A stretch of 64,000 nt of DNA from a virus, in the IMG/VR virus record IMGVR_UViG_3300035698_018616; one strand, 5' to 3'. The number at the start of each line of letters is the position of its first letter. Position 1 is the stretch's first letter. Both the position numbers and the translations under genes were made by a program. The notes beneath the pieces are model-generated. The model was not told where the DNA came from. It did not search any database and worked only from the letters and a program-made list of their open reading frames with translations. Below are positions 23,440 through 58,950 of this stretch, in pieces.

Positions 23440-23809
23440 TGGTGGATCTGCTCGGAGTCGAACCGAGGTCTTGACTGTATCCATTACTAACTGAGTTACA
23501 TTCATCATAAAGTTTGTGTAAATCAATGAACCCAAACTTTATAAACTGTTCATTGACCGTGTTACAATGCCTTTGTTATACACCGTTTAACACGAAAAGA
23601 TGTATAACGTATCCTGTTTAGTCTACGCCTCTTTCATACGTCCAGGAAACATATGAAGAAACGGCAAAGCCTTTAAGCGGCCATTGCATATTCGTAATTA
23701 TAATCATCTGCAATTACTTTAAGTTTCCAAACCTTTTAAGGTGTTGATTAGAATTTTCACCGAATGCAGTTGTAACAAACAAACAACCAATCGAAGCCAT
23801 TTCAGACCC
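23440..23809 (-). ncRNA. ssrA: tmRNA; tag peptide ADDYNYEYAMAA*
   Basis: 5' GGGTCTG pairs with 3' CAGATCC-ACCA with a G3.U wobble (Ala identity); GCTTCGA D-loop-like segment; T-arm CTCGG-TTCGACT-CCGAG; tag ORF 23711..23673 ending in AA-stop. Confidence 0.95.
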
Positions 23810-27175: not shown

Positions 27176-29012
27176 TCATTTATCCTCCCTTTTCATTTCG
27201 TACCATTCACATTTTCCACCATTAAATCCCGGTAACACTTCCTCATATTGTACACATAAATCATACCATAAGTCAGGATGAAAATATTCTATTAAAGTTT
27301 CCTTTTCATCATTTCCAAATACTACAGAGGCACGATACATTATACCAACAACAGCATTAGGATCTAACTTCAATCGTTTGACTAATAGCTTTTTTATTTC
27401 ATCATCTATCATTCTTTCTGGTGGGTGCATACTATCATTAGGTATAACCTTTACTTCATCCTCTTTTTTCTTCTTCTGTTTCAAAACATATCACCTAATA
27501 TCCTCTATTATATCTTTAATTTCAGCTAATAAACATGCACCTATTGAATCATCATAAGAAAATAAATGCGCACCAAACATTACCTTTTTATCTCTTAAAT
27601 CGGCATTTTTTTGGTCTAAAATTATACATGCATCAGATATATCTTCAATTTCAAGGTCTTTATTTTCTAATACTATTGAATCATCATTACATACTATAGT
27701 AATAGGTTTTTTAGACCAACAACCAAATATGTAACCATTACCTAAGTTTTTTTCATACCATACCCAACTCATCTTACTATTAATTCCACTAATTCTAAAG
27801 ATTTATAATCAACAAGTGTACCATTACAAACAGGACATTTTGTTTCAGAAAACGGTAGCATTTCCTCTTGATTGACATAGTACTTTATCACAGTTTTTTC
27901 TCCTGCAATTACAAAAAATGTTTGCCATCTTCTACCACAAAAACAACAAAACCCGACCAAGTAGAAAAACTTGAATTAGTTAATGTATTAAACACCTTTC
28001 ATTTCCTCTAATTTCACCAAACATTCTCTATATTGTTCTACTATATAAGGTATCAATGCTCTATCCTCGTCTGTGAGTTTTAATACTCCTTTACTGATTA
28101 AATGAACCAAGAAATATTTGTCAATTTTATTGTGTAAATAGTGCTGTACAGGAACACTAAAGTTTTTATCTCTAAGTCTACAATAATCCCTTACACCCTT
28201 TAGCTTTTCACCATTATATTTTGATATCCAATGTTTAACCCAAGCAATGGATTTTTTCAACTCTCCTTTGTCAATTTCCATCTCCCTTTTATGGTTTTTA
28301 TCCCTTACCTTATATATATTCAACACCTTTGGTTCAAAAAATTGTAAGTATGTGAAGCTCTTATACAATTCAAACCCACAATCAAAAAATTTATCAGGAT
28401 TTATGTTGGTCCATTTAGTATTGAAGTATTTCGTGGCTAATTCTAATGCCTCCCTATTCTTCTTGGACATCTTTGTTTTAAGGTGCTTGTCAAAATCTTT
28501 AGGAATCCTGTATCCTCTATTGTTAAATTCTGCTTGTGCTCTCCTGAAAGCTATATATATATCAAGTGTTTCGTACATTTTTTTGTCTTTCTTCCACCAT
28601 TTCTTCATACAATTCTTCAAAAGACATTCCTATTCTTTTGAAAGTAAGTGTTCCTTCTTTTACCCCATTTCTTAAATCCTCAAATATTTCCATTAACTCT
28701 TCGTCCGTTTTTATAAGCATTGGTTCCTCTTTATAACTGTATCCTTGCCAATAAATTTCCATAATCACTGTTAATTGACACCATTGCATTACAATATGCT
28801 CGTAACTTATTAGCTAATGGTGCCAATTCAGTTTCAATTTCACTTTTACCTTCTTCTGCTTCTGTTTCTGGTGATTCGGGACCAATAATTGTAACAAGTC
28901 TATTTGATAGACTTGCTTGTGTATTAGCAGATTCCTTTATTAAATTTTCCAATCTGCCCATATAATTAAAAATTTGCCCTTGTTTTTCTTCAGTTTTTTC
29001 ACAATCCATCAC
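27176..29012 (-). other. Run of hypothetical ORFs incl. 27988..28620 (210 aa; weak gp59-like possibility)
   Basis: Co-oriented ORFs; function not recognisable. Confidence 0.5.
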
Positions 29013-38523: not shown

Positions 38524-38599
38524 TGGTGAGCGGGTCCCAGGATTTGAACCAAGACCTCCCAACGGGTAGTCGGGTATGCTACTGTTACACCAAACCCGC
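38524..38599 (-). tRNA. tRNA-Gly(ACC)-like
   Basis: GCGGGTT/GACCCGC-U73 Gly-type acceptor; CCCGA-CTACCCG-TTGGG. Confidence 0.65.
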
Positions 38600-45193: not shown

Positions 45194-45269
45194 TGGGTCA
45201 AACGAGGGGAGTCGAACCCCCTAACACTTGATTCACAGTCAAGTCCCGCGCCGTTTAGGTTCGTTTGAC
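45194..45269 (-). tRNA. tRNA-His(GTG)
   Basis: CTTGA-CTGTGAA-TCAAG, G-1:C73, CCA. Confidence 0.82.
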
Positions 45270-55397: not shown

Positions 55398-55924
55398 ATC
55401 ACTTTCTCCTTTTTGTTTAAATTTAAGAGCTGAAACAAACCCTATCATGTAACAGGGCTTATGTCAACCCTCAAAAAATGAGGGTTTTTGAACTTTACTA
55501 AATGGTAATCATCTCAAAATCTTTCACTCTCAAACGGGTGGATTTCTGAACCAAATTTCCAACGAAACGTCTTGCGGATGTTTTACTAATGAACTTACGA
55601 GCGACCCTATCATTTGCCATTAAGACACGACCCTTTTTAGCCACAACACATTTCATTTTCTTCATATCACATTCTCCTTTTTGTTTAAATTATTCTCTCT
55701 CACAAAGACTGAAACCATTGTATCTCATGAACTCTGAACTGTAAATCAAAAATTAATCATCTTCTTCAATAAGCTCAAAACATTCAGGACATACAGTCCA
55801 CCACTTGGTCTCACCTACATAAGGATCACCATTTCGTTCTGTAAATCCTTCCTCTCCAGTCCATCCACAATTTTTACAAATATATAACATAATCCATCTC
55901 TCCTTTTAATTTCAGGTACTTAAA

Positions 55925-56058
55925 GGGGTTGTAAAGCGGAACCGGGTTTGTCTTCCTCTGGTGGCAATATCAACAGTCCATAGTATCGCAGTGATAAAGG
56001 TACTGGTATTGTCAGTTGGCAAAAGAAAATATAAACAGGTATTCTATTTTACAACCCT
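55925..56058. ncRNA. Structured RNA candidate
   Basis: GGGGTTGTAAA/TTTACAACCCT closing stem in non-coding DNA. Confidence 0.4.
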
Positions 56059-56514
56059 TATAACTATCTGAAATCTTTATGTTTTTGGTTGTGCTGACCG
56101 GTCAGACTTGGAAAAGGTTAATGAATTCAGGGTGTTACAATCCTACACTTCACTCAGCGCTAAGTTTTCTCGGATTGACCCACAGGACATCCATGGGTTT
56201 ATATGTAAACAGTTAAAATTGTTATGTTTTAAGTTGCTCTCTCAACAAACTAAATACATTGTATCACACAGATCAAAAACCGTAAACAGATTTAATTCAA
56301 TTTAAAAATCAGTGACTTACCAGACAAAAAACTTCAACATCAACTACGTCAATGGTACCATATATTTGAGGCTATGTAAACAGAAAAAATAATAGCTCTG
56401 GAGACCCTGACTACCACTGCATGGGAGACAGGGATACCCTCTGAGAGCGTGTAGGATTGACGTGGAGGGGTGTTCCAGACATGACTAAGGGGGTAGTATG
56501 GCTTGGGGGTGGCA

Positions 56515-56894: not shown

Positions 56895-57239
56895 AAGAGT
56901 ATCAAATGGTTAAGGATTTTCAAGTGTCTGAAATCATTTGGGAAAAAATTTAATTTACAAGATGTGATGTGTGTGGTACAATGTTTTTAACTCGTTGAGA
57001 GAGTAACTAACAAACATAACCCTTTGAATTTATATGACTTCTGGGTGTTCCAGAAGGGACTGGTGAAAAAGCGAGTGCACCGCTGGAGTAGCTGTCTAAT
57101 CGTCTGAATTTATTAATCTTATCCAAGTCTTTCCGGAAAGCGAAATTAGAAATTGACAAAGGAGGAGATGATATGATATATGTAAGTTTTTGAGTGTAAG
57201 ATGTTTTCAGATCTCGTCTGCCATGTGTAGAAGGAGTTG

Positions 57240-57265
57240 GGCTGATATTAGGTATCAGCCTTTTT
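57240..57265 (+). terminator. Intrinsic terminator
   Basis: GGCTGATA/TATCAGCC + T5. Confidence 0.8.
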
Positions 57266-57270
57266 AAAAA

Positions 57271-57299
57271 TTGACAAAGGAAATTGAATGATGTGAAAT
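57271..57299 (+). promoter_or_regulatory. Promoter (TTGACAAAGG type) for tRNA-His
   Basis: TTGACA-17-TGAAAT; near-identical to the 57485 copy. Confidence 0.7.
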
Positions 57300-57305
57300 G
57301 GTTAT

Positions 57306-57381
57306 GTCACCTGTAGCTTAATGGTTAGAGCCTGCGGCTGTGACCCGCAAGATGAGAGTTCGATCCTCTCTGGGTGACCCA
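57306..57381 (+). tRNA. tRNA-His(GTG), second copy
   Basis: G-1:C73, TGCGG-CTGTGAC-CCGCA, CCA. Confidence 0.88.
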
Positions 57382-57393
57382 AAAAATGAATAT

Positions 57394-57464
57394 AGAGGTG
57401 TAGTGTTAAGTGGCTAACACGCAACACGCTTGAATTGCCGGTTCGAATCCGGTCGTCTCTGCCA
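57394..57464 (+). ncRNA. tRNA-like RNA lacking a proper anticodon arm
   Basis: AGAGGTG/CGTCTCT-GCCA, D arm GTGTT/AACAC, T arm GCCGG-TTCGAAT-CCGGT; only 16 nt between D and T arms. Confidence 0.7.
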
Positions 57465-57484
57465 GTAAATTTAAGAATTAGAAA

Positions 57485-57513
57485 TTGACAAAGGAAATTG
57501 AATGATGTAAGAT
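57485..57513 (+). promoter_or_regulatory. Promoter TTGACA-17-TAAGAT
   Basis: Consensus match. Confidence 0.78.
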
Positions 57514-57526
57514 GTTTTTAAGGTTT

Positions 57527-57690
57527 AACTCTCGGCCATCAATTCCCAAGCAGTCGGTAGGGTCTGTTTCTTGGAGTAAAAGTTGCTCTGGCCGGGTTTT
57601 TGTAGAGAGGTTCGTTTCTTGGTGTACAATAATATCTATCGTTTTCGGTGCGTCCCTAAACGGGTTCCCTTAGTCGCCAAGCTCTCCACA
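57527..57690 (+). ncRNA. Two-domain structured RNA candidate
   Basis: CTCGGCCA/TGGCCGGG and TGTAGAGAG/CTCTCCACA stems directly after a promoter. Confidence 0.5.
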
Positions 57691-57703
57691 CAAAAATTGT
57701 CTC

Positions 57704-57872
57704 TCAATCCTTTATTTGAGGTATGATACTGTAAACTATCACTGTATTATACATCACAGGATGAAAAAACAACACGGAGGTCCTATACTAGTCACGGACT
57801 AACGGGTGAAACCTGGTACTGTCACTGATAAATATGGTCCCTGAGAGTATCATACTTCAAATAAGAGATTGA
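57704..57872 (+). ncRNA. Structured RNA candidate with ~28-bp closing stem
   Basis: TTATTTGAGGTATGATACT/AGTATCATACTTCAAATAA plus extension. Confidence 0.6.
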
Positions 57873-57877
57873 CGAAT

Positions 57878-57987
57878 ACGGCGGCTCTTTAGGAAAGGAG
57901 AATTGTTTATGAAATATTATTGGAAGTGGCCATTACTAATAATAGGAAATATCCATACTGGAGGTTCGAATCCTCCTCCGCTGTCCA
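57878..57987 (+). ncRNA. tRNA-like shell enclosing an RBS and a small ORF (57909..57992)
   Basis: ACGGCGG/CCGCTGT-CCA, T arm GGAGG-TTCGAAT-CCTCC; internal AGGAAAGGAG + ATG. Confidence 0.55.
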
Positions 57988-57996
57988 AATAAGAGA

Positions 57997-58025
57997 TTGA
58001 CAAAGGGGATTTTTTGATGTAGTAT
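57997..58025 (+). promoter_or_regulatory. Promoter TTGACA-17-TAGTAT
   Basis: Consensus match. Confidence 0.78.
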
Positions 58026-58032
58026 GTTTATA

Positions 58033-58141
58033 GATGATGTGATGTAGGGGGATAATAATGCATCTACTTGGCCTACGGGCCGGCGATAAAGCATTCTACG
58101 TAGAATGCTGATACCCTGTCGGGGCAGAACCGACCATCATC
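58033..58141 (+). ncRNA. Structured small RNA candidate
   Basis: GATGATG/CATCATC closing stem stacked on GTCGG-7nt-CCGAC; GGCC-TACG-GGCC; AGCATTCTA-CG-TAGAATGCT; starts ~7 nt after the -10 box. Confidence 0.6.
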
Positions 58142-58186
58142 TTTACAATATTAACCTTTTTGAAATGTTTATAAGAGGAGATTTAG

Positions 58187-58453
58187 ATGGCATATAATAA
58201 AGGTCTTGACAAAGTACTGTATGAGGCGAATATCCACAGTGAGGATGGGACCATTTTGAAGGTTTCTGTTTACTCCTACAATGGTGGAGACAATAAGTTA
58301 CAGATTGGACCTAGAACCTACACCAAGAAAAACGGTGAAGAAGGGTTCAGGAAGGCTGGAAGAATTAGTGAAGGGGAAGTTGAGAAGCTGGTTGACATCC
58401 TACCCGCTATAAGTTCTTACCTGAGTGGGGGCCAATTGACAGTTAGAGGTTAA
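58187..58453 (+). CDS. PC4/YdbC-like ssDNA-binding protein
   Basis: LKVSVYSYNGGDNKLQI...FRKAGRISEGEVEKL. Confidence 0.7.
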   Translation: MAYNKGLDKVLYEANIHSEDGTILKVSVYSYNGGDNKLQIGPRTYTKKNGEEGFRKAGRISEGEVEKLVDILPAISSYLSGGQLTVRG

Positions 58454-58465
58454 TTTTTGTGTAAA

Positions 58466-58552
58466 ATCTTGGAGTAAAGTGGCGTATCGGTCTGTATGGT
58501 AATTAGTATTGAAGAAGGTACCTCTGATGAGTGCGACCATACACTCCAAGAT
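58466..58552 (+). ncRNA. Structured RNA candidate
   Basis: ATCTTGGAGT/ACTCCAAGAT and GTATGGT/ACCATAC stems. Confidence 0.5.
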
Positions 58553-58575
58553 ATTATTAAACAGGCACATAAGAG

Positions 58576-58687
58576 TAATCAATAGATATTTGTGATACCA
58601 GAGTGGCGATCCGTCTGGTTGAAAGAGCAATCGGAAAAGAGTCATAACCTTATCATTACACATCAGAACTATAATAACTATTGATTA
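58576..58687 (+). ncRNA. Structured RNA candidate
   Basis: TAATCAATAG/CTATTGATTA and ACCAGA/TCTGGT stems. Confidence 0.5.
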
Positions 58688-58950
58688 TGTACAGCTTTTA
58701 TGTGTCTATTTAATAATTTGAAAAAGAGAGGCCTAAATGTACTTAGAAATTGAAAAAGAACTCAAGAAGCGATATCCTGGAAACAAAGGTAAAATAAACC
58801 AATGTGAAGAATGCAACAGATATGTCAATATTACTGTTGTTATTGGGGAAGCCTCTACTCGGGGGTCAATTTTACGAGAAGATAGTGCAACAACAGAAGT
58901 ATGTAAGACTTGTTTGCAAAAGGCATTACAACTAATTGAAAAGGAGGAAT

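Follow-up and report, generated by a model that had tools for sequence, protein, structure and literature searches.

The 64-kb stretch of DNA analysed here (hereafter the window) reads as that of an uncultured large phage, with 27 tRNA genes and a tmRNA on the minus strand (the tmRNA, at 23440-23809, being the sole one called in the window by ARAGORN and Rfam) and with genes for a ribonucleotide reductase, an NAD-dependent ligase, a primase-like protein and a gp44-like clamp loader. Genes point leftward up to about 55.9 kb and rightward from about 58.2 kb, and the sign of the GC skew flips at about 56 kb, where the two arms diverge. The plus arm is headed by a gene-free zone (57153-58141) that carries a battery of promoters and RNA elements; no credible protein gene was found in this zone, and the starts of its open reading frames differ between the window and its closest relative. 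Neither the battery region nor the 14 kb around it gave a match against GenBank phages with blastn or megablast.

Outside the battery proper, a further plus-strand promoter (56954-56982, TTTACA-N17-TACAAT with an extended TG) is followed by a conserved element of about 165 nt, element U, which runs on the plus strand to 57150. A mirror copy lies at 56257-56085 on the minus arm, and element U is also present in the related contigs L001, L005 (on both arms) and L015, where its hairpins covary. Iterated sites and palindromes were also observed directly upstream of the battery.

Relatives were anchored on the 88-aa protein encoded by the first protein gene of the plus arm, which gave one IMG/VR contig (L001/L003/L008), 15 homologous proteins and 77 metagenome loci; five contigs were close enough for comparison at the DNA level. 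A scan of viral contigs with patterns of the 88-aa protein gave no match. The closest relative is L004, with 84% protein identity.

The sequence TTGACAAAGG occurs exactly at 57153, 57271, 57485 and 57997, and just one other exact copy was found in the 64 kb, on the minus strand at 28265. The four sites belong to repeat families of 20-40 nt with 70-100% identity and are copies of a sigma70-type promoter (P1-P4, spanning 57153-58025), as a preliminary description of this DNA had proposed from the letters and their open reading frames. Aligned on the -35 box, the four plus-strand copies are alike in being preceded by an AT-rich stretch and in having TTGACA, a spacer of 17 nt with GATG at its end, the -10 box and G-TTT. 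Agreement with the consensus is confined to P3 (57476-57513; -35 at 57485-57490, -10 TAAGAT at 57508-57513) and P4 (57988-58025; -35 at 57997-58002, -10 TAGTAT at 58020-58025), at 10/12 positions each. P2 (57262-57299; -35 at 57271-57276), to which P3 is 90% identical over 40 nt, has an off-consensus -10 box, TGAAAT (57294-57299), without the conserved A at position 2; its orthologue in L004 carries TAATAT. P1 (57144-57182; -35 TTGACA at 57153-57158) is also off-consensus at -10, and can be matched only if an 18-nt spacer is allowed and TATATG is taken as TGn-extended (TGn-TATATG, 57174-57182). It is followed at 57198-57203 by a second box, TAAGAT, without a -35 of its own, P1 being a chimera of a full promoter and a second -10 box with its downstream piece. 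The same composite P1-type cassette precedes RNA F (see below) in L004.

The underlying geometry (an AT-rich stretch, TTKACA, a 17-nt spacer, TAnnAT and then G-TTTYAG) fits 11 of the 14 sites considered, which comprise the window's four and those listed for L001, L004, L005, L007 and L015. Promoters of the type TTKACA-N17-TAnnAT recur on both arms, oriented with transcription, and some stand ahead of the tRNA array, of tRNA genes or of protein genes. Since the type is present along both arms, it is no marker of the immediate-early class to which the battery had initially been assigned. A scan of viral contigs with the window's exact promoter pattern gave no match, and a scan with the relaxed consensus returned a known relative and one unrelated chance match (L089).

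The first element behind P1, RNA A (57188-57265, plus strand, z = -2.3), ends in a 10-bp hairpin (57239-57261) and then U5 (57261-57265), which on folding agrees with the definition of an intrinsic terminator; a consensus-based scan did not list it. Because hairpin and U5 end at 57265, the predicted RNA is about 78 nt long, somewhat more than the roughly 70 nt of the preliminary description, which had rightly placed a short terminated RNA here. The terminator lies directly before P2. For the body of RNA A, no homologue was found in the related loci and no paralogue within the window.

Two tRNA-type elements follow P2 on the plus strand, as previously proposed. A tRNA-His(GUG) (57306-57381, called by ARAGORN and by Rfam with 57.5 bits) encodes both G-1 and CCA and is the second His gene, its sequence differing from that of the array copy (45194-45268). 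It recurs in two relatives, L004, where it is 98.8% identical, and L005, where it lies near the strand switch. A leaderless tRNA-His starting at G-1 was considered, as the spacing in the window fits, and was dropped, the spacing being 5 nt longer in L004 and no promoter lying nearby in L005. The second element (57394-57464) is an anticodon-armless tRNA-shaped RNA that keeps the acceptor stem, D arm, T arm, G73 and CCA and has a 3-bp/5-nt stub for an anticodon arm (5 nt against 11 in the model). Its RF00005 score of 34.6 bits, obtained over 57394-57461, exceeds the gathering score of 29 solely because the other three arms are intact; ARAGORN made no call, and the element is not a cloverleaf with a decoding anticodon arm. 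It has no homologue in the related loci and no paralogue within the window.

A third tRNA-like element, E, lies further downstream in a plus-strand cassette (57858-58001) bounded by 16-nt direct repeats (57858-57873 and 57986-58001). Its shell (57876-57990, z = -2.0) has a tRNA-like closing stem, a T arm (GGAGG-TTCGAAT-CCTCC) and an encoded CCA, and encloses a Shine-Dalgarno sequence and a 27-codon open reading frame (57909-57992). E is preceded by nothing more than a -35 remnant (TTGACG, 57869), a -10 box being absent, and has no promoter of its own; the cassette is missing from L004, where the repeat is single-copy. No homologue of E was found in the related loci and no paralogue within the window. 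Its identification as a tmRNA (RF00023) or a tRNA was rejected, with no ARAGORN or Rfam call, as was the idea that the armless tRNA and E arose by recent copying of tRNAs of this phage, among which no close match was found. Given that 26 of the 27 tRNA-type genes in the window, including tRNA-His and the armless tRNA, encode CCA, as does E, the armless RNA and E probably feed into tRNA maturation. RNA A, the armless tRNA and E, for which no homologues were found, may have been newly acquired or may be remnants.

Structured elements had been proposed between the second tRNA-type element and P4, and were recovered at these places as C, D and E. The first of them, weakly folded when taken alone (z about -1.6), resolves into C1 and C2. 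C1 (57520-57600, plus strand) is an irregular hairpin of about 65 nt with an 8-bp basal stem, followed by U5, and would be either a small RNA with its own terminator or an attenuator-like leader. Its three copies (one in the window, one immediately behind tRNA-His in L004, and one in L005, placed on the opposite arm with its own promoter) are strongly conserved and show nearly no double changes, and C1 is a probable RNA family; a scan of viral contigs with the C1 pattern gave no match. C2 (57601-57692, plus strand) is a closed hairpin element that has a 21-nt repeat in common with C1, and its closing stem shows one compensatory change (G-C to A-U) with respect to L004. C2 and D, like E, have no promoter of their own in the window.

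D (57699-57876, plus strand, 178 nt) consists of a 29-bp closing helix and three inner helices around a conserved, A-rich core, and folds with an MFE of -55.9 kcal/mol (z = -4.8). It is present in six copies in five phage contigs, in whose alignment 95.3% of cells are paired, as against 35-42% when partners are slid by 1-3 columns. Covariation, which the preliminary description had proposed to check in relatives, is seen: 22 of the 41 pairs changed on both sides, as against 9.4 in shuffles, none of 500 of which was as good. Compensatory changes are seen with respect to L004, and in L007 an inner helix has UAGG/CCUA in place of CAGG/CCUG. The alignment is rich in G-U pairs and poor in A-C cells, and the model scores 116-171 bits on the plus strand as against 34-49 bits on the minus strand; this pattern and the strand bias identify D as an RNA of the plus strand. 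In all six copies, the 3' end of the closing helix overlaps the -35 box of the next promoter, and D ends without a U-run. With the D model (R1), 410 kb of related loci and the rest of the window yielded no additional members. A long-stem element of the minus arm (55908-56076) gave a weak R1 match (18 bits, E = 0.064) and was not accepted as a homologue. A scan of viral contigs with the D core motif returned eight loci, of which only the already known relative was a true D.

Behind P4 lies RNA F (58032-58141, plus strand, about 110 nt, z = -3.6), a four-way RNA whose 5' end is 7 nt past the -10 box TAGTAT. It comprises a terminal helix of 7-8 bp (8 bp in the MFE structure, which adds one A-U pair to the 7 bp first described), a 6-bp hairpin whose loop is rich in G, an arm that varies and a 5-bp/7-nt hairpin resembling a T arm; the start and both helices agree with those initially proposed. 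F has no CCA, and its T-like loop is non-canonical. Its three copies (window, L004 and L005; model scores of 97-122 bits) keep the terminal helix, the hairpin with the G-rich loop, the stretch GAUACCCUG and the T-arm-like hairpin, the middle arm being variable. Pairing is retained in 96.4% of cells, and 5 pairs changed on both sides, 9 of 500 shuffles being as good. A search with the F model (R2) over the same 410 kb of related loci and the remainder of the window added no members. This comparison of relatives points to selection on the folds of D, F and C1, of which D and F are real RNA families and C1 a probable one, all restricted to a small clade. It also supports the description of the zone as packed with structured RNAs led by promoters; several of these RNAs are conserved and show compensatory changes.

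The 88-aa gene (58187-58453, plus strand) lies behind a leader that starts at 58142 with ATTAACCTTTTTGAAATG and contains a Shine-Dalgarno sequence, and is followed by the clamp-loader gene. Its product was modelled with a pLDDT of 87 as four strands and one helix, and its best fold matches are PC4-like ssDNA-binding proteins, that of phage T5 being first; the predicted fold is like that of a PC4/Whirly-like ssDNA-binding protein. P4 is the orthologue of the promoter of this PC4-like gene in the relatives. In L001, L006, L007 and L015, the promoter leads directly into the leader ATTAACYTTTTTGAAATG, the Shine-Dalgarno sequence and ATG, and in the window, L004 and L005, F is inserted exactly between the transcription start and this leader, from which it follows that F would be made as the 5' part of the mRNA. 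The U-run behind F varies (U3 in the window, U5 in L004, none in L005), and F is without a strong terminator. The earlier statement that each promoter precedes a small RNA rather than a protein holds in that the zone has no credible open reading frame, and is not supported for P4, which would drive the PC4-like gene as well. The condition that was to refute discrete small RNAs, long mRNA leaders, may apply to F, which lies in the leader of the PC4-like gene without a strong terminator; RNA A is predicted to terminate before P2.

Between the conserved upstream element and the 88-aa gene, module content differs among relatives. In the window, the modules are A, tRNA-His, the armless tRNA, C1, C2, D, E and F; L004 has tRNA-His, C1, C2, D and F. 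L001 and L007 have another RNA, 'G', which ends in a terminator hairpin, and then D, with one extra insert in L007. L005 has D, D, a small open reading frame and F, and carries C1 and tRNA-His on the opposite arm. In L015 and L006, the promoter leads straight into the leader. Comparative support differs by slot: D, F, C1 and tRNA-His recur, with D and F being well supported, C1 probable and tRNA-His canonical, and A, the armless tRNA and E are, in this comparison, unsupported singletons of the window.

The pieces that the window has in addition to L004 are bounded by direct repeats of the promoter region (14-nt, 16-nt and 20-40-nt): the A cassette is flanked by two copies of AAATTGACAAAGGA, the piece made of the armless tRNA and P3 ends in a 40-nt copy of P2, and E is flanked by two copies of CAAATAAGAGATTGAC. 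The same holds in other relatives, where the L007 insert is associated with a 28-nt repeat whose copies lie 207 nt apart, and L005 has a 32-nt repeat around its open reading frame and a 46-nt promoter repeat ahead of each D copy. No paralogue of any module was found elsewhere in the window.

F lies inside the leader kept upstream of the 88-aa gene, followed by U3 in the window and by no U-run in L005; this position could suggest that the whole zone is one long structured 5' leader, or a redundant promoter stack, that feeds the PC4-like gene and yields no discrete small RNAs, its folded parts serving as cis attenuators, processing sites or stabilisers and some slots being decayed remnants. The absence of promoters for C2, D and E in the window, the chimeric make-up of the promoter of the A cassette, and the attenuator-like place of C1 right after a promoter and ahead of downstream units (window and L005) would also be accounted for. 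Nevertheless, we regard this as improbable: RNA A has a good intrinsic terminator right before P2, the canonical tRNA-His must be excised, each D copy in L005 has its own promoter, D lies upstream of the gene's promoter in L001 and L007 and hence outside that leader, and modules switch arms independently of the gene.

The surroundings of the battery raise another alternative, in which promoters and structured transcripts would provide primer, R-loop or copy-control RNAs for replication, on the model of promoter-dependent phage and plasmid origins. The GC-skew flip at the divergence of the arms, the iterated sites and palindromes just upstream, and the order of the first downstream genes (PC4-like ssDNA-binding protein, then clamp loader) are all of the kind such origin-associated transcription would show. 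An origin is expected to be conserved, however, whereas the module content varies even among close relatives; the cargo includes a tRNA and CCA-bearing tRNA-shaped RNAs, what is conserved in D is an RNA fold, G-U pairs included, and not a DNA site, and the skew here also tracks the coding strand. This explanation therefore appears highly improbable.

Searches for the identity of the RNAs gave little outside the tRNAs. With Rfam 15 covariance models and E-values up to 5, A, C1, C2, D and F had chance-level matches only (such as CRISPR-DR45, 22 bits, E = 1.2), and in 20 relatives Rfam found tRNAs only. 6S RNA, Y RNA, pRNA, put-type RNA, riboswitches and ribozymes were rejected as identities of D and F, having no Rfam support and an anatomy that does not fit. 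No antisense targets above shuffles were found within the window, the best match (13 nt) being RNA A's own terminator stem. With respect to the tRNA family (RF00005), tRNA-His is a full member and the armless RNA a partial one, E has only the closing stem, T arm and CCA, and F only the four-way shape.

This resemblance to tRNA bears on the function put forward in the preliminary description, an immediate-early RNA module for host takeover or anti-defence. In its explicit form, tRNA-His would replace a cleaved host tRNA, and the armless RNA, E and F would be decoys for tRNA-targeting nucleases or other tRNA-binding host factors. The battery does lie at the head of an arm, by the switch of strand and GC skew and behind host-type promoters; three phages retain an additional tRNA-His, led by a promoter, close to the switch, and two RNAs retain acceptor, T arm and CCA yet cannot decode. 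There is also a precedent in the documented neutralisation of PARIS, a tRNA-cleaving defence, by a virally encoded tRNA (PMC11464382). On the other hand, the same promoter type drives genes across both arms, the decoy candidates armless tRNA and E are singletons missing even from L004, the conserved D and C1 are not tRNA-like, and F has no CCA and a non-canonical T-like loop. We consider such a module unlikely, and the analysis gave no evidence of a role of the array's RNAs in host takeover or anti-defence.

It is quite unlikely, in our estimate, that the clade keeps an RNA cassette hot spot on either side of the strand switch, where promoter repeats capture, duplicate and exchange genes for structured RNAs, namely the D, F and C1 families and CCA-encoding tRNA-shaped RNAs without an anticodon, with at least some acting early in trans on host factors, for example as decoys for tRNA- or dsRNA-binding defence proteins. 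If true, the array would do with RNA what the anti-defence islands of phages do with proteins.

The reading we favour, with a probability of roughly 0.6, takes the origin-proximal start of the plus arm for a hyperplastic array built of promoter cassettes. It would resemble the promoter-early stem-loop (PeSL) cassettes found where T4-type phages have hyperplastic regions (Arbiol et al., 2010, PMC2839356; Comeau et al., 2014, PMC4122927), with a cargo that is mostly non-coding RNA. The different subsets of modules carried by the relatives, together with gains and losses bounded by repeats, make this the best interpretation. The likeness lies in the repeated strong sigma70-like promoters with an AT-rich upstream stretch (here four copies of 20-40 nt, with the geometry kept in five relatives), in a stem-loop that adjoins or overlaps the -35 box (here the A terminator abuts P2 and D overlaps a -35), and in repeats that flank a variable cargo, the indels and replacements among close relatives having their junctions in the repeats. 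The comparison is made from sequence alone, and the phage here is not established as T4-type.

Classical PeSLs carry protein ORFans and short G/C-rich stem-loops that were shown to terminate, and recombination between their repeats yields excised mini-circles (PMC2839356, PMC4122927). Here, in contrast, the cargo is tRNA, tRNA-shaped RNAs and new folded RNAs instead of orphan open reading frames, of which only the small cassette in L005 and the 27-codon frame of E are found; and the stem-loop adjoining the promoter is D, a conserved multi-helix RNA of 178 nt, instead of a short G/C hairpin. Several observations count against the array: the -10 boxes of P1 and P2 are off-consensus, large conserved RNAs would have to be taken as 'stem-loops' when only A and C1 end in U-runs, and the depth of comparison is five related contigs, with three copies each of F and C1. 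What is new is the RNA cargo with the D and F families; the kind of array itself is known.

Other phage systems offer partial parallels. At the start of the T7 early region, tandem early promoters are combined with RNase III processing hairpins, and the battery resembles it in its stacked strong host-type promoters heading an arm and in its long helices between units, which RNase III could cut. T7 differs in that no RNA genes are known between its early promoters, and its processing sites are hairpins of about 60 nt without a conserved inner core. The tRNA region of T4 encodes two small stable RNAs, RNAC and RNAD, whose role is unknown (PMC3014915). Like these, the RNAs described here are small phage RNAs beside tRNA genes and presumably co-matured with them; unlike them, they are encoded at a distance from the main tRNA array, and several are led by their own promoters.

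We propose a mechanism for the PeSL-like array that starts from the observed anatomy and in which transcript starts, ends and processing are predicted from consensus matches. Host sigma70 RNA polymerase would initiate at the four duplicated promoters. From P1, it would make RNA A of about 78 nt, stopped by the intrinsic terminator, and from P2 a precursor of tRNA-His and the tRNA-shaped RNA, probably matured by tRNA enzymes. Transcription from P3 would yield C1, ending at its stem and U5, and read-through would reach C2, D and E. The closing helix of D, whose 29 bp would suit RNase III-type processing or an insulating stem, abuts the next promoter. From P4, F would be made fused to the mRNA of the PC4-like gene, to be cut off or retained as a leader. 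Finally, the junctions suggest that the array evolves by recombination between promoter repeats of 14-46 nt, as a result of which relatives would carry different sets of modules, on either arm.

Accessory regions of phages are usually read as collections of small orphan proteins, and here the shuffling cassette carries mainly RNAs. If these RNAs are stable and act in trans, they would form a compact, clonable set of candidates for the study of early infection; if they are not, the array would still be a clear case of promoter-mediated modular evolution outside the T4 model phages.

Both divergent arms open with the same conserved element of approximately 165 nt, U, which lies directly after the first promoter: promoter and U together occupy 56954-57150 (+) at the start of the plus arm and, as a mirror copy, 56286-56085 (-) at the start of the minus arm. 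The two copies of U constitute the inverted repeats I1 and I2 of the window, and the element is also present in the related phage loci L001, L015 and L005, in the last of these on both arms. Its hairpins covary, and a palindromic hairpin is found at its terminus. Because U follows the first promoter on both arms and precedes units containing terminators, its placement may presumably be likened to that of nut/put-type antitermination sites. In the relatives L001 (5405-5585) and L007 (805-965), the slot after the first promoter holds a conserved RNA of about 170 nt, 'G', with a common core and a 3' end formed by a hairpin and a U-run; 'G' is absent from the window.

On the minus arm, a 45-aa CxxC...CxxC gene (55890-55753, -) has, directly ahead of its Shine-Dalgarno sequence, an element of about 170 nt with a 27-bp closing helix (55908-56076, -). 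By position the element is the counterpart of D, the 178-nt RNA of the plus arm; the covariance model of D (R1) gave 18 bits (E = 0.064) on this element, which is no convincing homology. A similar element lies ahead of the tRNA-His of L005.

The window carries two tRNA-His(GUG) genes of differing sequence. That of the main tRNA array (45194-45268, -) scores just 44 bits on the Rfam tRNA model RF00005, and the promoter-led gene near the strand switch (57307-57381, +) reaches 57.5 bits and has a conserved counterpart (98.8%) in L004, the closest relative. Of the window's 27 Rfam tRNA matches, 26 have CCA encoded directly 3' of them, the sole exception (38529-38599) reading CACCAA.

The first protein gene of the plus arm (58187-58453, +) encodes an 88-aa protein with no match in Pfam. 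Its predicted structure (four strands and a helix, pLDDT 87) has as top fold matches PC4-like ssDNA-binding proteins, namely the phage T5 PC4 homologue (4bg7, probability 0.98), Pur-alpha and YdbC, and relatives are encoded at 77 metagenome loci. The 283-nt gap that follows (58454-58736, +) is folded (z = -4.8) into two closed-stem structures back to back, at ~58466-58552 and ~58553-58718. The first is absent from L004 and the second is 86% conserved there; the RNA-cassette pattern therefore extends beyond the first plus-arm gene. In more distant phages (L052:2528-3142, L032:120-283), too, the PC4-like gene has tRNA genes for Arg, Pro and Arg in a small cluster just upstream, and the linkage between this gene and RNA genes may therefore predate the clade compared here.
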